From IMG/VR virus record IMGVR_UViG_3300010962_000004: a stretch of DNA of 45,005 bases, one strand, 5' to 3'. Position numbers and translations under genes: made by a program. Within the stretch, counting starts at the first letter, position 1, and each line of letters starts with the position of its first letter. This stretch comes from a virus. Under the pieces are notes generated by a model. It did not search any database, had not been told where the DNA came from, and saw only the letters and a program-made list of their open reading frames with translations. Below, piece after piece: positions 2,038-44,778 of this stretch.

Positions 2038-2227
2038 TTATTTACCACGTCTTTGTTGAATAGTAATATACAACCCCATTAATCGATCAGTGGTCATTGT
2101 ACCATTCTGTAAATCCTTTAAATGCGATTCCTGAATGATTCCGTCTTTAACCGCCTGTGCAATAAAGTTTTCCGTTTCAGTTTTCATAGCTGGTGAACCA
2201 GGGTTCCAATTTGCCACTTTGATTTAT
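2038..2227 (-). pseudogene. Remnant of a lysin-type C-terminal domain (open frame without a usable ribosome binding site)
   Basis: The frame reads IKVANWNPGSPAMKTETENFIAQAVKDGIIQESHLKDLQNGTMTTDRLMGLYITIQQRRGK. Its tail resembles the C-terminus of the endolysin at 3892-4548 (KGILKVDHSEKVNSMTDGEVLGLLISVVKR). There is no Shine-Dalgarno site before the ATG at 2187 or the GTG. Confidence 0.4.
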
Positions 2228-2347
2228 ATAAATAAACCCATTCTTTCGACAAAAACTTAGATAATATTTCCTATAATCCTAAATTATATTATAATAAGTT
2301 ACAGATAATAGAAATTTATTGTCTAAAATTAATTGGGGGTGAAAAAA

Positions 2348-2704
2348 ATGGACAGAACTGGGTTGTCTATGAGTGTAGAGTTAAAACATGTTCATCTTAA
2401 TTGGGGAACTACAAGTACTACAGGTGATAGAAAACGGAATGAGCTAGAGGCATATATTCCAATAAAAATAGATGATGCACGTAGGCTAAACTTAAAAAGA
2501 GGTGTATCATTTTATGTAAAAGGACAGGATTTTAAATTACGTGCTAGTGGAACTCAATCTGATGGATTAGGTAAGAATTTCCAAAGTGAAGGTAATTTAA
2601 AATTATTGGGTTGGTATCTAAAAGAAGAATTAGGTGCCAAATCAGAAGATATAGTAGAAATATATTGGGAAAGCAAAACTGAAGTATCTATAACATTAAT
2701 TTAG
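2348..2704 (+). CDS. Hypothetical small protein (118 aa), convergent partner of the C5 methyltransferase; possibly a DNA-binding barrel (B3/AbrB-like)
   Basis: ATG 2348 follows the Shine-Dalgarno site GGGGGTGA (the ORF track starts at TTG 2333). No nuclease motifs are visible. The pattern LNWG...RNELEAYIPI and the C-terminal GAKSEDIVEIYW suggest a DNA-binding barrel only by recollection, with no search done. Confidence 0.6.
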   Translation: MDRTGLSMSVELKHVHLNWGTTSTTGDRKRNELEAYIPIKIDDARRLNLKRGVSFYVKGQDFKLRASGTQSDGLGKNFQSEGNLKLLGWYLKEELGAKSEDIVEIYWESKTEVSITLI

Positions 2705-2709
2705 AAAAC

Positions 2710-2750
2710 AAGGTCACTTATCTTCTTAAGATACAGTGACCTTGTTTGAT
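2710..2750. terminator. Hairpin between the convergent 118-aa gene and the methyltransferase gene
   Basis: aaggtcact (2710-2718) pairs with agtgacctt (2735-2743), followed by gtttgatt. The right arm overlaps the methyltransferase 3' end. Confidence 0.4.
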
Positions 2751-3802
2751 TGGTATGAAGGTTCAATGGAATCATATTTAATTCCTGCGAATGTTTTTAA
2801 AATAGATTCGAAAATTATCTGTGCTCCTTTAGGTGGAACCGCCATACCTATTTGTTGTCTTACTTCTTCTTTTTTTCCATGAAAAATGTAATTATCAGGG
2901 AACGTTTGAATTCTTGCTCTTTCTCTATTTGTCAAAGCTCGTGACTCTTCCCAGTGATATCCGTGAGTACCACCTCCGCCGCTAGCAGTAAGTGTATACG
3001 AAGGTTTATCAGGGTGTAAACGTCGATATAGGTTACTTAATTTTAACCCTTTAACGTTTAATTGAAATTGTTCAGGTAACTTTTCATACCAAACATTTTC
3101 ACCTGCAGGAATATGATTTAAACGTTCTACCACACCTTGTTTGTGTTTTGTAAATTCATGATTTGATGCATTTAAAGGTATGCCATTTAGTGCTTCTCTA
3201 GCACTCACAAAATTAAAATTATGTGTAGGTGCAGGAACTTTAAAATTTAAGTTTAAGTCTTTTCTTATACCGACAATAATAATTCTATGTCGATATTGTG
3301 GAACTCCATATTCTTCAAATTTATATAAGTGCGGAACTAAATTATACCCTGTTCCAGCTTTTTGTAATTCATCTAAAATATTTTGAAAATCTACTCCGTG
3401 ATTTGAACTTTCGAGACCTGATACATTCTCTGCTAAAAACCATTTAGGTTTAAAATGATTAATAACTTCAATACCATATTTATATAATTTACCAAAATAA
3501 CCATTTGTACCTTTTTGTTTCCCTACACCACTAAAATCATTACAAGGGAAACCAAAAGTAAATGCATCAATGTATGGCAGACTATTGATATTTAAGTCCT
3601 CTACACTACAATTGATAACTGAATCAGAATTATTTGGACAAATATTATTTCGAAATGTATTACATGAACTTTCATCCCTATCATTCGCCCAAACATGCTG
3701 AATCTCATATATTTCATCACTTTTTTGTATAGAAGCATTTTTAGCACCTAATGCTATTCCGCCTGGTCCACAAAATAACTCTCCTTTTAGAAAAGTAGTC
3801 AT
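2726..3802 (-). CDS. DNA (cytosine-5)-methyltransferase
   Basis: The canonical C5-methyltransferase motifs appear in order: FCGPGG (I), GFPCNDFS (IV), LAENV (VI), QYRHR (VIII), RALTNRERARIQTFPDNY (IX), GMAVPP (X). Confidence 0.92.
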   Translation of the reverse strand: MTTFLKGELFCGPGGIALGAKNASIQKSDEIYEIQHVWANDRDESSCNTFRNNICPNNSDSVINCSVEDLNINSLPYIDAFTFGFPCNDFSGVGKQKGTNGYFGKLYKYGIEVINHFKPKWFLAENVSGLESSNHGVDFQNILDELQKAGTGYNLVPHLYKFEEYGVPQYRHRIIIVGIRKDLNLNFKVPAPTHNFNFVSAREALNGIPLNASNHEFTKHKQGVVERLNHIPAGENVWYEKLPEQFQLNVKGLKLSNLYRRLHPDKPSYTLTASGGGGTHGYHWEESRALTNRERARIQTFPDNYIFHGKKEEVRQQIGMAVPPKGAQIIFESILKTFAGIKYDSIEPSYQSNKVTVS

Positions 3803-12274: not shown

Positions 12275-12481
12275 TCACCTCATCCATGGTGGTTTATCAT
12301 TACTTTCTTTGATAATTTCTAACTCCGGCATAACAAGCTCCACACCTGCAGGGAAAACAACGATATGCATATATTGAGGATTGGCATTCATGACTTGATG
12401 CATAACCATTTCAGTGCCATAGTGTTTGAAACAAATATAATCCCATTCATCACCTGAAATTGTTTTATATGTCTTAGCCAA
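12275..12481 (-). CDS. Tail protein X (gpX, LysM-like)
   Basis: AKTYKTISGDEWDYICFKHYGTE ... FPAGVELVMPEL. A TTG start at 12481 follows the Shine-Dalgarno site AGAGGAGG. Confidence 0.7.
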   Translation of the reverse strand: MAKTYKTISGDEWDYICFKHYGTEMVMHQVMNANPQYMHIVVFPAGVELVMPELEIIKESNDKPPWMR

Positions 12482-14093
12482 ATGACAACCTCCTCTCATT
12501 ACGTTGTATCTTCTCCAAGCGTGTTGCTAAATCATCTTTATCTCTATCAGCGTGTTGCTTCACTTTTTCAAGATCCTCAGGTCTTTGTACGTTGTATTGT
12601 GGAGAATACTGAATAATTAAATCTCCACCACTGTTATTATTTGATAATGCCTGTTCTGGTTGAATAACAGCATCTGGGGCGCTCGATTGCAATGTAACCT
12701 GTTGTTGAAGTTCATTTACTAAGCCATCTTTATTCAACATGCCAAGGGCTTGCCCAGTTTGTAGCCATAAATCTTTTGAACGCTGTGAGTTATTCCAAGG
12801 GATGACAGATTCAGTATCGCCACCTTCACCAATCCAAGCTAACTCAGGAGATGTAACAATACCACCGTCTGCGTATCCTCCAAGACCTAATGCATCCATA
12901 ACTCCACTTGCTGCAGATCGAATCGGTGCTGGTACCATGTCTGCAATAGCTCCTAAGACTGCGCTACCCATCGATTTAATACCCTCAATTAAACCATTAA
13001 TGATAGATATTCCAATATCATATAAGTTAATGCCCTGAAAGAAACCAATGATATTATCCATAATTGTTGTAGCTGTTTCTTTTATGATTTCCCATGCTCC
13101 AGACCAGTCACCCTGCAAAAGTGCCATCGCGGTTTGAATAATGCCAGTAATTAATGTAAGTGCATTTTCGATGACAAATTGAACAATAGGAAAAACTGCC
13201 TCTACAATTGAAAGTAACGATTTTATAGCTGGAATGATACCGTTTGTGAAAATTTCTGCAAGTGAGGAAATGAGCGATTTAATAATCGGTGCCGCTGTCT
13301 CAACAATCATTACAAGTGTTGGAAAAACTTTTTCCGCTGCAGAAATCAAAAGAGGTAGAACCATAGCTCCTAAATTTTTAATCGGTGTTGCCAAAGATTT
13401 AAAAGCTTCAATGACTTTTGGTAAGATTTCCGAAACAGTCGAACCAATCTGTGATACACCTGAAACGAATATATTTTTTAAAACATCTAACAAAGGTCCA
13501 ATTGCATTTCTAAACGTTTCTGACTTTTGATAAGCAAGGTATAATCCTGCGCCTAGCGCAACAAGTCCTGCCGCAACCAAAACAACTGGATTGGCCAACA
13601 TGGCTAGATTTAGGGTACGCATTCCTGCAGCCATTGCTTTTAGGATACCTTTTACTCCTCCGCCGTAAATTGAAAATGCTACCATAGCCGCACGATGGGC
13701 TCTATACAGCGTGATACTTGCTTTTTGGATGGCATTAAAGGAAGTTTGATAAGCTTTAACTGCCACCATTGCTCCTTTGTATGCACCAAAAGCTCCAACC
13801 ATACCTAAGACGGCAGGTCCAACAGACATTATTACACTTTTCGCTTTTCCGATTGCTCCTGGTAAGTTGTTAGATAGATAATTCGCAAAGGTGTTTAAAT
13901 AAGGCAGCACTGCATCACCAATTGGATAGACTAAATCCATAAATAAAATGCGCCCAATCCCACGAATTGCCGCATTAAATGAACTAAATTGTATTTTATT
14001 AACTGTTTCCATGGTTCCCTCAAAGCCCTGCATGGCTTCTGTTGATCCAAGCATGGCATACATGGCGGTGGCTTCTAAATCTTCCCACTTTGT
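12474..14093 (-). CDS. Tail tape measure protein, exon 2 (C-terminal part)
   Basis: Long Ala/Gly/Ile-rich helical protein typical of tape measures. The frame joins exon 1 to give GVGLFG|TKWEDLEA once the 250-nt element is removed. Confidence 0.8.
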   Translation of the reverse strand, partial: TKWEDLEATAMYAMLGSTEAMQGFEGTMETVNKIQFSSFNAAIRGIGRILFMDLVYPIGDAVLPYLNTFANYLSNNLPGAIGKAKSVIMSVGPAVLGMVGAFGAYKGAMVAVKAYQTSFNAIQKASITLYRAHRAAMVAFSIYGGGVKGILKAMAAGMRTLNLAMLANPVVLVAAGLVALGAGLYLAYQKSETFRNAIGPLLDVLKNIFVSGVSQIGSTVSEILPKVIEAFKSLATPIKNLGAMVLPLLISAAEKVFPTLVMIVETAAPIIKSLISSLAEIFTNGIIPAIKSLLSIVEAVFPIVQFVIENALTLITGIIQTAMALLQGDWSGAWEIIKETATTIMDNIIGFFQGINLYDIGISIINGLIEGIKSMGSAVLGAIADMVPAPIRSAASGVMDALGLGGYADGGIVTSPELAWIGEGGDTESVIPWNNSQRSKDLWLQTGQALGMLNKDGLVNELQQQVTLQSSAPDAVIQPEQALSNNNSGGDLIIQYSPQYNVQRPEDLEKVKQHADRDKDDLATRLEKIQRNERRLSFG

Positions 14094-14343
14094 CAATTTT
14101 GTTATCGTAAAGGCTTTTTATCCTCTACCTCTCACCGTTTCCAGTGAGTTCGGCATACATTTTCACTAATAATAGTGTCGTTCACTCGTGGAGGTATTTT
14201 ATTCTCGAATGATGAGTTTCAACCTCTATGCTCTACGGTGAGCCATGATTTTTAAGTCATGCTTTACCTCGGTATTAGCATATTTCATTAAACTTAGCCT
14301 TCACCGATTTTGAACGATTTTAATTCGGCACAATTTATCATCT
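14094..14343 (-). ncRNA. Candidate ORF-less group I self-splicing intron interrupting the tape measure gene
   Basis: The 5' exon end AUUCGGU (14350-14344) pairs with the intron's GCCGAAU (14329-14323), with a U-G wobble at the splice site (P1). The adjacent UUGU (14333-14330) pairs with the exon 2 start ACAA (P10). The element ends in G at 14094. In-frame stops (aga tga taa) follow the break. A 7-bp hairpin with a GAAA tetraloop lies at 14131-14148. Confidence 0.7.
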
Positions 14344-15192
14344 ACCGAATAACCCTACACCAATTTGATTAGCAGCTACCTGGTCATCCATACTTTGTAA
14401 CTCGGCCACTACGGTACTTGCTACATCGGCAACTGTACCTTTACCTTTTAAGTAATCTTTCCAAACTTTTTGAGTCTCTTTTGAAAGATCACCCATAGCA
14501 TCACTTGTGGCTTTAGAACCGTCCTTAGACCTAATCTGGAACTCTTTCATGACGTCATTCACATAATCAAGATTGTAAACACCAGCTTTTGCACCACGTT
14601 CTAAAATGCCAAAATACTCCTCAGCACTATAGCCCATTTCTCCAAACAACGGTGCATACTCGGCCACATTATCAAGCATTTCATCAGAAAAATTAAGACC
14701 TCTTTGCGCGCCTGCTGCAAAAAGGTCCATTGCTGTTGTTGAGCTAATACCAAAGCTACTCATCATATTATTAGCTGCTCGTGTTACCTCGTTTATATCC
14801 TCATCAAATGTTTTAGCAAAGGATAGCGCTTGTCCTGTAAATTGCTCTAAATCGGCATCACTCAGCTCATGCATGTTTTGTTTAACTTTAGCTAATGCCT
14901 CTGTAACTTCTCCAAAATCCTCACCATAATTATTACGAAATAAATTTTCTGCTGTGCTTTTTAAGTCTTCAAAATCATCACCAATTAAACCTGTTTGAGC
15001 TGATAAAGTCGATAGTTCTTGACTCATGTCTGCAACTTGCGATATAGCACTCCCTAACGCTGCAGCACCTCCTAGAGCAGCTGCGGCACCACCTAACATT
15101 TTCATCATGCCACTAGCACTATTAAAAGTACTTGTGAAGCTACTCGTTAGCTCAGCACCCAATTTAAAAGCAATATCAAATACTTTAGACAC
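14344..15192 (-). CDS. Tail tape measure protein, exon 1 (N-terminal TP901-type core)
   Basis: GTG start after the Shine-Dalgarno site GGTGAGGTGA. Contains GISSTTAMDLFAAGAQRGLNFSDEM and similar tape measure core patterns. As an unspliced ORF it would end at 14338. Confidence 0.8.
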
Positions 15193-15203
15193 TAACTTTC
15201 ACC

Positions 15204-15751
15204 TCACCCATTAGGATTTTTATTTGCTTTGGCGGCTGCTTTTGCAAATTCAATGGTTTTTTTCCAGGCAAATAATCTTCGAATTGTTAACCTCATATAA
15301 AAATCGACTGATGTTTCACTATTATTCGCACAGTATAAACAAATCAGTCGAATGGTATGAGCTGGTTCACGATTTATTTGCCACTTAGTAAAAAAAGTGA
15401 GGTGCGTGTTGTGATTTTTGCATAATCTGGAGCTGATAAAGATCGGATTAAATCAACATGTACCTTTGCTGCTTTCGCTGCTACGATTGCTAAAAACGGC
15501 TTAGACATTTCTTTGACCATCACTATGGAGTTTTGCAGATTTTCCGCATTAAATTGCGCTTCGGCTTTTTCAATATCTGTACCCGTCATTTCTTCAAAGT
15601 CTAATACAATTTCATTAAAGGTTTCACCCTCAAAAACTACTGGACGTTTTAGTGAAATCACATTTTCATTTTTCAATGCATCTTCACTAACCACTTTTTC
15701 TAATGCGTTTTCGTTAATAACTTCTACTTGTTTTATATCCTTTTTAGCCAT
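15204..15751 (-). CDS. Tail assembly chaperone, -1 frameshift extended product (gpE+E'-like)
   Basis: From the slippery site, the -1 frame stays open for 61 codons (TKWQINREPAHTIRL...AKANKNPNG). It stops at 15204-15206, just before the tape measure start. Confidence 0.65.
15374..15751 (-). CDS. Tail assembly chaperone (gpE / gp41-like), frame-0 product
   Basis: 125 aa between the tube and tape measure genes. It ends shortly after a U UUU UUA slippery site. Confidence 0.75.
   Translation of the reverse strand: MAKKDIKQVEVINENALEKVVSEDALKNENVISLKRPVVFEGETFNEIVLDFEEMTGTDIEKAEAQFNAENLQNSIVMVKEMSKPFLAIVAAKAAKVHVDLIRSLSAPDYAKITTRTSLFLLSGK
15389..15396 (-). promoter_or_regulatory. Programmed -1 ribosomal frameshift slippery sequence (T7A, read as U UUU UUA)
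   Basis: A run of seven T on the sense strand within codons ctt ttt tta. This is the conserved position for the tail chaperone frameshift. Confidence 0.65.
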
Positions 15752-26505: not shown

Positions 26506-26534
26506 GTATCACTGGGTTTATGATGGTTCACGTG

Positions 26535-26753
26535 TTACTCTTTGTGACTATCATTACCCTTCATGAACTCTCTAGCCTTCTTAATAGGAATGTCCATAAG
26601 AATGTGTAGCCGATTAGATATAACAGTGAGCTCATTAACTGCTTTCTTTTTCTCACTGATAGAAACAACTGCATGAACAATACCAGTAATCAATAACATC
26701 ACACATAGCGCACGTATGATTAAGTCCAACGCTAGTGTCATGTATACAATCAT
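26535..26753 (-). CDS. Hypothetical membrane protein (72 aa, one N-terminal TM helix)
   Basis: Hydrophobic N-terminus LALDLIIRALCVMLLITGIVHAVV. Confidence 0.5.
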   Translation of the reverse strand: MIVYMTLALDLIIRALCVMLLITGIVHAVVSISEKKKAVNELTVISNRLHILMDIPIKKAREFMKGNDSHKE

Positions 26754-26837
26754 GGGTCATGGTCATGATCTTCTCACCACCTTTTTAGGCGTAATAAAAA
26801 GCCACATCGTGATTGATGTGACTTGATTGATAATCCG

Positions 26838-27116
26838 TTATCTTTGATAGCCTATTGAATCATTCTTTACAAATAATATTAAATTACCTTTATTATCAGT
26901 CGCTCGTTCTTGTATATCATAAACATTAACAAGACCTTCACGTCCGTAATCGTTACTACTATGTTCAATATACTTATTTACGACTAATAATTCTTTTCTT
27001 TCCATTTCTTCTAATGCGATTTCTTTAATCCAACCTGGGTTATCAATATCAATTAAAATAACACTTGAACCAAATCTTTTTAAATCTTCCCAGTACATTC
27101 TTTTGTAATCAACCAT
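26838..27116 (-). CDS. Hypothetical protein (92 aa), first gene after the large non-coding gap
   Basis: ATG 27116 lies 8 nt after the Shine-Dalgarno site GGGAGGTG (the ORF track starts at 27134). Confidence 0.55.
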   Translation of the reverse strand: MVDYKRMYWEDLKRFGSSVILIDIDNPGWIKEIALEEMERKELLVVNKYIEHSSNDYGREGLVNVYDIQERATDNKGNLILFVKNDSIGYQR

Positions 27117-27386
27117 CCTTACAACACCTCCCATCTACCTATATCATAGGATAAATGGAATGGATTGTCATTATGAAAAAAGACTACCAATTTTATTGCC
27201 ACAAACTTATGAAAAACTCTTTTTTAATACAATTGTTCGCTATTAAGTATAGTAAGAGTTATTTTTTCTTTTTAATAAGCGAGAATGTAACACTGCTATT
27301 CATTTTGTAACACTTGGGCTGACAACGTATTTATTTTAGAGATTTCTATCAACCCCTTTTATGTGAATAAAAGGAGGGTGAAATTT

Positions 27387-27458
27387 ATGTTACGCATATT
27401 ATTGGTAATTTTCCGTATTGTTTTGCTTCTAATTCAGTTTGTCATCGAGTTTTTCTAA
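27387..27458 (+). CDS. 23-aa hydrophobic mini-protein (MLRILLVIFRIVLLLIQFVIEFF), type I toxin-like
   Basis: Not in the ORF track. The consensus Shine-Dalgarno site AAGGAGGG (27371-27378) lies 8 nt before the ATG. The product is one predicted TM helix. A hairpin follows at 27466-27490. The ORF is on the opposite strand to all neighbouring genes. Confidence 0.5.
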   Translation: MLRILLVIFRIVLLLIQFVIEFF

Positions 27459-27465
27459 TCAAGTC

Positions 27466-27490
27466 GGGCTGTATCTTAATGGTACAGCCC
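27466..27490 (+). terminator. Hairpin downstream of the mini-ORF
   Basis: gggctgta (27466-27473) pairs with tacagccc (27483-27490). The U-tract is poor. Confidence 0.4.
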
Positions 27491-27535
27491 TAGTACCAAT
27501 GTTTTAAATGTCCTTTAATTAGATAGTGATTCTTC

Positions 27536-27570
27536 CTAGCAAAATGTATTTGCTAGTTAGTTTTCTTTAT
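27536..27570 (+). terminator. Second hairpin plus T-rich tract
   Basis: ctagcaaa (27536-27543) pairs with tttgctag (27549-27556), followed by ttagttttctttat. Confidence 0.4.
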
Positions 27571-27594
27571 TGTTTTCTTTATTGTTTTCTTTAG
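27560..27594. repeat. 12-bp tandem repeat gttttctttatt, about 2.8 copies
   Basis: Copies at 27560-27571 and 27572-27583, with a partial copy at 27584-27593. Confidence 0.85.
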
Positions 27595-27625
27595 AGATTT
27601 TGCATATATAGAAGAAACTCGTTTA

Positions 27626-27724
27626 GGTGTACTCTAATTAGAGTACAGTGGTGTACCCTAATTAGAGTACAGTAGTGTGCCCTAATTAGAGTACAGTAAA
27701 GGTGTACTCTAATTAGAGTACAGT
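27626..27724. repeat. Array of four 24-bp repeats, each containing the 20-bp palindrome TGTACTCTAATTAGAGTACA
   Basis: Palindromes at 27628-27647 (perfect), 27652-27671 (1 mismatch), 27676-27695 (2 mismatches) and 27703-27722 (perfect). The period is 24, 24 and 27 bp. Confidence 0.95.
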
Positions 27725-27860
27725 CAAGACCCATGACAATGAAAAAGGAATCAACTAAGGTGTCCCTTAATCAATTCCCGATGATATTAATTTAACATGT
27801 ATAAAACCAAATGCTTTAAAAGGCTTTTTAAATATTTTAAAATTCTTTTTCAATTTTTTT

Positions 27861-28301
27861 CTATATTGTACGTGCAATGTTTAAGTCTAAAGCTAATTTG
27901 TAAAAGGCTTTCCAACGAATTTTATCGTAAGTAGGCGGCGAAATTGGTGGTTGAAATTTAAAACAATAGACTTTCATATCTGTTAAGTATTCGGCATCAT
28001 CAGCCATGTATCTTGTTTCAATTAAGAATCTTTCCATTGGTGGTAGCCTTTTTACAGCACGTTCTATACGCTCACAATATTTACGTCTTGCACTCTTTTC
28101 ATCAACGTTGTAAATGGCCACTGAGCCTGTTTGGTCACTTGTTAAATTGCCTTTACCTCCACCAATGTCATTAATATGTGATGTTGTAGCTGCTTCTTTT
28201 TCTTCAAAAGTTAAATGTTTAAAAATGCGGTATTTTTCTAATTCTCTCTCGACAGCTGCTTGCGTTGCTTTTCTATCTAATTCAGGCAATTCAAAATCCA
28301 A
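27861..28301 (-). CDS. ArpU-family late transcription regulator (sigma-like)
   Basis: LPPMERFLIETRYMADDAEYLTDMKVYCFKFQPPISPPTYDKIRWKAFYKLALDL matches the ArpU family pattern. A TTG start at 28301 follows the Shine-Dalgarno site AAGGGGGAA. It is the last gene before the late region. Confidence 0.7.
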   Translation of the reverse strand: MDFELPELDRKATQAAVERELEKYRIFKHLTFEEKEAATTSHINDIGGGKGNLTSDQTGSVAIYNVDEKSARRKYCERIERAVKRLPPMERFLIETRYMADDAEYLTDMKVYCFKFQPPISPPTYDKIRWKAFYKLALDLNIARTI

Positions 28302-43587: not shown

Positions 43588-44778
43588 ATGGCAAGTATCG
43601 TAAAACGTGGAGAAAATTCATATCGTTTCACTGTTTATTTACCTAAAGATGCAAAAGGTAGGTATCCACGTGAGACAAAAACTATTACTATAGAAGAAAA
43701 AATGACTCCAAAGCAGTTAAAGGAATTTTTAGATCGAGAGTATCTAAAATTCAAAAATGAAGTTTTGTCAGGAAATTATGTAAAGGTAGAAAAAATCCTC
43801 TTTAAAGATTTTGCAGAACAATGGGAAAAGGATTTTGCCTCAACTCTTGCTTTAACCACTTATGGGAATCATCAGCGGAAATTAGAACTTCATATAAATC
43901 CTATTATTGGCCATATGCCAATGGATCAAATCAACGCATTCCATCTTATGTCAGTTGTGAGAGATATGAAAAGATATGATGGTAAAGATGAGCCAGTAAC
44001 CTATCATAGTAAACAAGATGTGTATAGAACATTAAAAAGCATATTTAAGTATGCTGTGAAGTGGAATGTTTTATCTAACAACCCTATGGATGGAGTTGAA
44101 AAGCCTCGTCCAAGCGATACTGATGATGTTGATAAAGAAATGCAAATTTATGAAGAAGATGAGATTGAAACATTAATGTATATGTTACAAAGTGAACCTG
44201 AACTATGGAAAATGATGTTCACTTTAGCACTAGCTGCCGGATTACGAAAAGGAGAATTGTTAGGTTTAGAGTGGAAAGACGTAGATTTTGAGAATCAACA
44301 GATATACATTCACCAATCTATTGTTTTGACTAAACAAGGTCCACATATCAAAGCTACTAAAACCAAAAAATCTAAACGTTATGTGACATTACCTGAGTCA
44401 GTTATGGAAGAATTAAAAGCATATCGTATACATTGGGCAAAAGAAAAATTGAAAAAAGGTGATAAATGGATAGAACAAGATAGAGAATGGCTATTCCATT
44501 CATTTGATGGTACTCATTTATATCCAACAAGCCCTTCTAAACATTGGAAAAATTTTATCGATGGGCATAACTTTAAGTACATTAGGTTACATGATTTGAG
44601 ACATACTTCAGCATCATTATTAATCGCACAAGGTGTGCACGCTAAAATTATTAGTGAACGTTTGGGGCACGCTGATATTTCAGTGACAATGAACACGTAT
44701 GGACATGCTTTTAAATCTGCCGATCGTGCAGCTGCTGACAAATTAGATAACTTCTTTAAAGTAAAAAAACAATCTTAA
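43588..44778 (+). CDS. int: Tyrosine site-specific integrase
   Basis: LAAGLRKGELLGLEW (Arg box), LHDLRHTSASLL (HxxR), GHADISVTMNTYGH (catalytic Tyr). Confidence 0.92.
   Translation: MASIVKRGENSYRFTVYLPKDAKGRYPRETKTITIEEKMTPKQLKEFLDREYLKFKNEVLSGNYVKVEKILFKDFAEQWEKDFASTLALTTYGNHQRKLELHINPIIGHMPMDQINAFHLMSVVRDMKRYDGKDEPVTYHSKQDVYRTLKSIFKYAVKWNVLSNNPMDGVEKPRPSDTDDVDKEMQIYEEDEIETLMYMLQSEPELWKMMFTLALAAGLRKGELLGLEWKDVDFENQQIYIHQSIVLTKQGPHIKATKTKKSKRYVTLPESVMEELKAYRIHWAKEKLKKGDKWIEQDREWLFHSFDGTHLYPTSPSKHWKNFIDGHNFKYIRLHDLRHTSASLLIAQGVHAKIISERLGHADISVTMNTYGHAFKSADRAAADKLDNFFKVKKQS

Follow-up and report, generated by a model that had tools for sequence, protein, structure and literature searches.

The classical phage introns of subgroup IA, such as those in the td, nrdB and sunY genes of T4, in the gene for the DNA polymerase of SPO1 and in Twort, interrupt highly conserved stretches of essential phage genes. 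They have a P7.1 extension between P7 and the 3' strand of P3, which is a hallmark of the subgroup, and HNH or GIY-YIG homing endonuclease genes are often present in them or have been lost. To our knowledge, no classical example resides in a tape measure gene. Here we describe an insert of 250 nucleotides (nt) in the tape measure gene of a prophage represented by IMG/VR virus record IMGVR_UViG_3300010962_000004 (45,005 nt; this whole stretch of DNA is called the window below). The insert is very probably a group I intron of the TMP-IVS3 family. All intron and exon coordinates are window positions, and the reading is that of the minus strand.

The closest described systems are the group I introns TMP-IVS3a and TMP-IVS3b of prophages from the Bacillus cereus group, which were assigned to subgroup IA1 (Tourasse & Kolsto, Nucleic Acids Research 2008; PMC2504315). 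The introns of types a and b occupy the same site, IVS3, and differ in their cores, but have virtually the same P1, guide sequence and P10. Some of the copies contain an H-N-H gene, and most do not. The example of type b comes from plasmid pBWB404 (strain KBAB4, B. mycoides; NC_010183). Small group I introns are also known from the capsid and tail genes of Cluster J mycobacteriophages, where splicing during late expression was shown experimentally (Pope et al. 2013; PMC3706429). By analogy, the latter are a precedent for the function of such introns. The insert considered here is likewise small and lies in a late structural gene of a temperate phage. However, the hosts of Cluster J phages belong to the phylum Actinobacteria, the interrupted genes encode minor tail and capsid proteins, not the tape measure, and we saw no relationship at the sequence level. 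A literature search for Lysinibacillus, the likely host genus (see below), together with group I introns yielded only IStron and unrelated papers.

The first half of the split gene ends with ...GGT GTA GGG TTA TTC GGT, the last base being 14344. The insert opens with AGA TGA TAA (14343-14335) and closes with ...AAAUUG, where the final G is 14094, and the second half starts with ACA AAG TGG from 14093. The upstream open reading frame (ORF; 14338-15192) extends two codons into the insert, and the TTG reported as the start of the downstream ORF is formed by the final three bases of the insert (UUG, 14096-14094), near which no Shine-Dalgarno sequence was found. There is no sense ORF in the gap, as stop codons occur throughout all three sense frames. 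The PF10145 (PhageMin_Tail) profile matches residues 89-283 of exon 1, up to its last position, and the PHROG tape measure profiles are continuous across the two ORFs (phrog_1272: 212-489 in the first, 489-861 in the second).

A syntenic prophage without the insert was found in locus L128. In a global DNA alignment it is approximately 91% identical to the window over the tape measure region (90.8% in exon 1 and about 91% in exon 2). The order and sizes of the genes are the same, namely sheath (475 amino acids, aa), tube (172 aa), chaperone (125 aa) and tape measure, followed by the genes for tail X, gpD, gpU and baseplate J. The only large gap in the alignment measures exactly 250 nt (14343..14094), and the gap flanks ATTGGTGTAGGGTTATTCGGT and ACAAAGTGGGAAGATTTAGA are identical in the window and L128 over at least 19 nt on each side. 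The window and L128 are a filled-site/empty-site pair: precise removal of the insert restores the host gene, and the intron-less allele exists. The DNA comparison alone allows a shift by one nucleotide, as the first base of the intron and the first base of exon 2 are both A. This ambiguity is resolved by the U.G rule for the 5' splice site and by the omega-G rule, which favor the boundaries given above.

The ligated product of 822 aa has many full-length, uninterrupted tape measure homologues. The best one, P0001, is encoded by L128 (821 aa, 91% identity, 100% coverage). In the alignment of 35 homologues the junction falls inside the near-invariant motif ...GVGLFG^TKWEDLE... (here and below ^ marks a splice junction), which is contiguous across the join, with no gap or extra residue. 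The preliminary description of this locus, made from the sequence alone, had taken the two minus-strand ORFs for parts of one tape measure protein, separated by some 250 nt opening with in-frame stops, and had proposed the in-frame join GLFG^TKWEDLEA. The profiles, the empty site and the uninterrupted homologues agree with it in all these points.

The same description had proposed a P1 helix ending in a U-G wobble exactly at the break, a P10 helix formed by the same contiguous guide, and an omega-G at the end of the gap; comparative data bear out all three. The wobble pair U14344.G14329 falls at the 5' splice site. The outermost pair of P1 covaries with the exon base: the window and two IMG/VR contigs with exon ATTCGGT have A-U here, other copies U-A, U.G or C-G. 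This covariation refers to copies at the tape measure site, as inspection by eye gave no assignment of P1 and of the 5' splice site in relatives from other genes, such as TPWB06 (locus L003) and L061. The P10 pairing is conserved in every copy that occupies the tape measure site. Compared with the empty site, the insertion ends with G14094, and a G directly precedes the 3' exon in every relative inspected.

Similarity searches with blastn identified related DNA in 78 phage records (Staphylococcus, Clostridium, Streptococcus, Bacillus, Arcanobacterium, Caldibacillus) and in 45 plasmid or prophage records. These relatives sit between parts of split tape measure, terminase, capsid and other genes, and some of them, such as those of Staphylococcus phage 6ec and Bacillus phage BMBtp13, contain an HNH endonuclease gene. 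The window contains the 3' motif GGATAAAAAGCCTTTNNGATAACAAA once, with 0 occurrences expected by chance; in IMG/VR, at least 120 contigs have this motif, where it lies upstream of a wide variety of exon sequences.

At the site in the tape measure gene, an intron is present in 26 fetched loci besides the window. Its length is 226-233 nt in copies with the 'b' core, 247-273 nt in those with the 'a' core and an extended P9, and about 1146 nt in those with the HNH gene. The window intron combines the 'a' core with a simple P9 capped by GAAA. A genome scan with P1 and the guide sequence yielded three species of the B. cereus group. The B. albus copy (L127) is an ORF-less intron with the same type of core as in the window, the B. 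dicomae copy (L126) has the window-type core and an HNH gene in the P5 loop, and the B. paramycoides copy has the 'b' core. The P3-P8 region of the window intron aligns throughout with L127 and L126, whereas its P4-P6 is unlike that of the 'b' type from pBWB404. As some relatives carry the HNH gene in the P5 loop, the window copy is an ORF-less derivative.

The pBWB404 intron of Tourasse & Kolsto is matched by the window intron, with aligning 5' ends (UUUCGGU^AGAUGAUAAAUUGUGCCGAAG in pBWB404) and 3' ends (GAUAACAAAAAG^ACAAUG...). The introns of pBWB404, B. paramycoides, B. albus and the window have in common the 5' end UUCGGU^AGAUGAUAAAUUGUGCCGAA and the 3' end GAUAACAAA..G^ACAA. Thus the host gene and the site are the same as in TMP-IVS3 (...UUCGGU^...G^ACAA... 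in RNA, FG^T(K/M)(W/Y/F)ED in protein), and P1, the guide sequence, P10, P9.1 and the 3' tail are virtually identical. The core type corresponds to IVS3a, and ORF-less copies exist alongside HNH-bearing ones both in our data and in the published set (PMC2504315). On the other hand, the TMP-IVS3 hosts are lambda01-like phages of the B. cereus group, whereas the window is a Lysinibacillus P2-like prophage with a contractile tail; the overall nucleotide identity of the Bacillus copies to the window intron is about 70-80%; P9 of the window intron is a plain 7-bp hairpin with GAAA, whereas the extended-P9 form at this site measures 273 nt; and the first P1 pair of the window is A-U, fitting the Lysinibacillus exon.

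Two intron types occupy this tape measure site also within our sample, for instance in L119, L041, L085 and L088 compared with the window and L084. Their P1, P7-P9.1 and 3' tails are near-identical, whereas P4-P6 cannot be aligned (alignment A2). This pattern suggests that the P4-P6 domain is exchanged as a module, in line with what Tourasse & Kolsto described for IVS3a and IVS3b.

A secondary structure model was built by hand from alignments (Table 1) and tested on ten diverged ORF-less relatives from different genes. Covariation was counted directly on a MAFFT alignment, which partly misaligns P6a and P8. Standard pairs make up 95.0% of the pair cells, compared to 33.6-45.3% when the 3' partners are slid by 1-3 columns. 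Changes on both sides occur in 34 of 54 pairs, and in 500 shuffles none of the five observed measures was attained even once. P3, P7 and P7.1 are paired in 100% of the cells. All six pairs of P7 are formed in each of the ten relatives, with compensatory changes at two positions (A-U/G-C). Compensatory changes are also seen in P9 (for example, CUUAUAG/CUAUAAG) and in the two outer pairs of P9.1 (G-C, C-G, A-U, U-A), which is followed by the 3' tail GAUAACAAAAUU (to 14095). Thus the core P3-P9 with the P3/P7 pseudoknot is strongly supported by covariation. By analogy with characterized group I introns, G14231-C14153, adjacent to the bulged A14232, is the predicted guanosine-binding pair; G14233[A14232]G14231 opposite C14153 C14152 has the layout expected of such a site, and this layout is conserved.

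Compared to the classical phage introns of subgroup IA, P2 is absent from the model, and a single P7.1 hairpin (14191..14226), with an inner stem and a conserved internal loop, replaces P7.1 and P7.2. This peripheral element of subgroup IA is thus present, with compensatory changes in all its five pairs; it bears on the assignment to IA as a whole. By the same comparison, the group I splicing chemistry would be expected to be common to both.

Minimum free energy folding of the single sequence gave a significant z-score of -3.9 and a non-canonical fold, which was left out of the model. The 7-bp GAAA-capped hairpin noticed in the sequence earlier (14131-14148) is P9. The long-range helices GAGGUA/UACCUC and CUCACCGU/ACGGUGAG suggested together with it were rejected: only 57% of their cells are paired, which equals the shuffle mean, there is one double change, and the segments belong to P4'/P6, P7.1 and P9 instead.

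Table 1. Coordinates of the split tape measure gene, its intron and the elements of the intron fold (window positions)
Feature	Positions	Strand	Sequence and evidence
Exon 1, tape measure gene	14344..15192	-	283 codons; GTG start at 15192
Group I intron (very probable), 250 nt, without ORF	14094..14343	-	RF00028 match; gap relative to L128; stops in three frames
Exon 2, tape measure gene	12474..14093	-	539 codons and stop; PHROG tape measure matches
Internal guide sequence	14323..14333	-	UUGU-GCCGAAU; read from the sequence; recurs in fetched introns at this tape measure site
P1	14350-14344 / 14329-14323	-	AUUCGGU with GCCGAAU
P10	14333-14330 / 14093-14090	-	UUGU with ACAA (first 4 nt of exon 2)
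P3	14317-14312 / 14183-14178	-	UCGUUC / GAACGA; 6/6 pairs in 10/10 relatives; 5/6 with double changes
P4-P6 domain	14237..14307	-	Covariation in P4, P5 and P6
P4	14307-14302 / 14274-14269	-	Covariation U-A/A-U; G.U/A-U/G-C
P5	14299-14297 / 14279-14277	-	Covariation; L5 is the position of the HNH gene in relatives
P6	14268-14266 / 14239-14237	-	Covariation GGU/ACC, GAU/AUC, GCU/AGU
P6a	14262-14257 / 14248-14242	-	Hand model
P7	14233-14227 (bulged A14232) / 14157-14152	-	G[A]GCAUA with UAUGCC
P7.1	14226-14222 / 14195-14191	-	GAGGU with ACCUC; 5/5 pairs with double changes; 100% of cells paired
P8	14177-14173 / 14168-14164	-	CACUA / UAGUG; 4/5 pairs with double changes
J8/7	14163-14158	-	AAAAUG; near-invariant in relatives; followed by the P7 3' strand UAUGCC (14157-14152)
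P9	14148-14142 / 14137-14131	-	7-bp hairpin; GAAA tetraloop
P9.1	14128-14122 / 14113-14107	-	GUAGAGG with CCUUUAC; loop AUAAAAAG
Omega-G, last intron nucleotide	14094	-	Gap boundary relative to intron-less L128

The group I covariance model of Rfam, RF00028, matches positions 14380-14131 (minus strand) with 37.6 bits, E = 5.5e-8 in a local search and 3.8e-6 in the whole window. In the E-value mode this is the only significant match to an Rfam family in the window. In the Bacillus tape measure genes that carry IVS3 introns, unrelated IA2 introns reach 92-97 bits. No match to RF00028 at E<0.1 was found for the IVS3 introns of pBWB404 (L129, 2501-2747), B. albus (L127) and B. paramycoides (L125, 7680-7935). 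As the published pBWB404 homologue is unmatched, the low score is a property of the subfamily and not a sign of decay. The TMP-IVS3 subfamily is effectively invisible to standard Rfam annotation. The window contains no tRNA, and Rfam and motif scans of it found no second group I intron and no further copy of the motif.

Several points weigh against the assignment. The covariance-model search, although it gave a significant match, remained below the gathering score (37.6 versus 50 bits), and the default Rfam scan of the window at gathering thresholds reported nothing. The relatives were recruited via the conserved 3' motif, and thus the invariance of this motif is by construction, and the alignment was partly guided by hand. 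The subgroup was taken from the published IA1 assignment and from the reading of P7.1. Finally, no splicing assay is reported for the tape measure introns in PMC2504315. The group I interpretation of the preliminary description nevertheless has the RF00028 match, the empty site, the joined motif of the homologues, the covariation in the core and the homology to TMP-IVS3 on its side.

One could also consider the insert an inactive relic of a group I intron, the tape measure gene being then a pseudogene of a cryptic, non-inducible prophage. The lack of a homing endonuclease and the sub-threshold RF00028 score agree with such decay. However, P1, P3-P9 and P10 are all intact, and the differences from the relatives are compensatory rather than disruptive. 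The U.G pair, omega-G, P7 with its bulged A, and J8/7 are conserved, and the published pBWB404 intron is not matched by RF00028 at all. Both exons are open and about 91% identical to those of the intron-less sister, and the prophage looks complete, with integrase, terminase, portal, capsid, sheath, tube and baseplate genes. Hence decay is improbable. Judging by the intact, compensated helices and the intact exons, the intron is likely to be splicing-competent at present.

That the halves are two separate genes for a two-piece tape measure, and the 250 nt an ordinary spacer or a regulatory RNA, is much less probable still. This is what the ORF callers suggest, related phages have the halves annotated in GenBank as separate coding sequences, and the break coincides with the end of the PhageMin_Tail profile. 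But exon 2 has neither a real start codon nor a Shine-Dalgarno sequence, the break lies within an invariant motif, which is uninterrupted in each of the 30+ homologues examined, the sister prophage lacks exactly these 250 nt, and the presumed spacer has a ribozyme fold supported by covariation. The chance that another small mobile element (a miniature inverted-repeat transposable element, an insertion sequence remnant, a group II or other intron) mimics group I features is minimal, for although the insertion is short and ORF-less and its context is rich in mobile elements, terminal inverted repeats and a target duplication are absent, the flanks come together with no duplicated bases, group I is the only Rfam family matched, and the relatives in many phage genes each end in G before the exon and were published as group I introns.

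Canonical group I splicing is the most likely mechanism; the catalysis and the splicing in vivo, which we infer from sequence comparisons, would proceed as follows. The guide would pair with the last 7 nt of exon 1 in P1 and with the first 4 nt of exon 2 in P10. The core would fold as P3-P8 with the P3/P7 pseudoknot, stabilized by P7.1, P9 and P9.1. An external guanosine held in P7 would attack after U14344; omega-G14094 would then take its place in the binding site, and exon 1 would attack after G14094 with its free 3' end. The exons would be ligated as GGU^ACA, producing the 822-aa tape measure protein with LFG^TKWEDLE. The predicted junction in the spliced RNA is ...TTATTCGGT^ACAAAGTGG..., and the predicted peptide spanning the join is ...GVGLFGTKWEDLEA... 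or GVGLFGTKWEDLEATAMYAMLGSTEAMQGF. In the unspliced RNA, translation would halt two codons into the intron, and exon 2 by itself has neither a start codon nor a ribosome-binding site.

The window copy has no ORF in any sense frame and hence no homing endonuclease gene; its spread could be only passive, or dependent on an endonuclease acting in trans. Its presence is probably due either to past homing by an HNH-bearing relative with subsequent loss of the ORF, or to recombination between prophages.

Several observations concern other introns and ORFs of these genes. The Bacillus genes with the IVS3 intron also have a further group I intron, unrelated to the first, a few hundred bases upstream, for example, in BMBtp13 (L002, 1546-1764) and B. 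paramycoides (L125, 7188-7405), with RF00028 scores of 97 and 91.6 bits, respectively. These are probably the published TMP-IVS1/IVS2 introns of the IA2 type. The Lysinibacillus tape measure gene has one intron only. Close relatives of the core also interrupt tape measure genes in 6ec-like phages of staphylococci and in an Arcanobacterium phage, before a different exon sequence, G^AAYAAYATGGC..., which is apparently another tape measure site; they were observed in TPWB06 (L003, 3001-3218) and 6ec (L004, approximately 2196-3161), the latter with an HNH gene inside. On the plus strand of the window there is a 73-aa ORF with an ATG start (13948-14169), antisense to the beginning of exon 2 and to the 3' portion of the intron, which most likely occurs by chance.

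The window is a prophage and includes the host spore-germination gene GerAC at 776-1993. The tyrosine integrase (43588-44778) is identical to a Lysinibacillus capsici protein, which indicates a Lysinibacillus host. The prophage genes encode terminase gpA, a lambda-type portal, capsid, sheath, tube, chaperone, tape measure and a P2-like baseplate. The 125-aa ORF upstream of the tape measure gene (15374-15751, minus strand) ends with ...SLFLLSGK*; there is a TTTTTTT run at about 15396, from which the -1 frame is open for some 60 codons (15193-15400, minus strand), ending just before the tape measure start. Judged by its sequence, this arrangement looks like the usual programmed -1 frameshift of tail assembly chaperones. 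A C-5 cytosine DNA methyltransferase gene (PF00145, E=7e-73; 2726-3802, minus strand) lies at the tail-fibre end, adjoining GerAC. Its product may be an orphan methylase or a part of a restriction-modification or anti-restriction module. The region 26512-27861, approximately 1.3 kb long and situated upstream of the terminase genes, lacks ORFs of at least 100 aa. The sole RNA match there, mir-5014 at 27622-27729 (31 bits with the gathering score of 101), is almost certainly spurious.

For annotation, the two 'tape measure' ORFs are to be joined as one 822-aa protein, and the 250 nt recorded as an intron. It is missed by default Rfam scanning, and GenBank records of related phages list the halves as separate coding sequences called 'hypothetical' or 'tape measure'. 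The TMP-IVS3 family is extended from prophages of the B. cereus group to a Lysinibacillus P2-like prophage, with the guide co-adapted to the exon. The host genus and the length variant are new here, the family and the insertion site having been published already. The preliminary description was correct about an ORF-less intron in a tape measure gene, and mistaken only in secondary details: the two long-range helices are not conserved, and a minimal intron in an essential tail gene is not unusual, having been described before. No new question is opened, as tail and tape measure genes of phages have been known since 2008 to contain group I introns, including ORF-less derivatives. The observations fit the view that phages carry such introns between genera.

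A broader possibility, which we regard as tentative and rather doubtful, is that the intron represents a large, modular subfamily of phage group I introns, largely undetected by Rfam, whose conserved 3' module has a function of its own. Pointing in this direction are the almost invariant 3' module (P9.1 and the GAUAACAAA tail), which 120 or more viral contigs contain in many different genes, P4-P6 cores that are interchangeable at one homing site, and a published member, that of pBWB404, with no RF00028 match. If this were true, many 'split' structural genes in annotations of Firmicute phages and prophages would be unrecognized intron-containing genes, and the 3' module might serve, for example, to dock a homing endonuclease acting in trans or to time the splicing.

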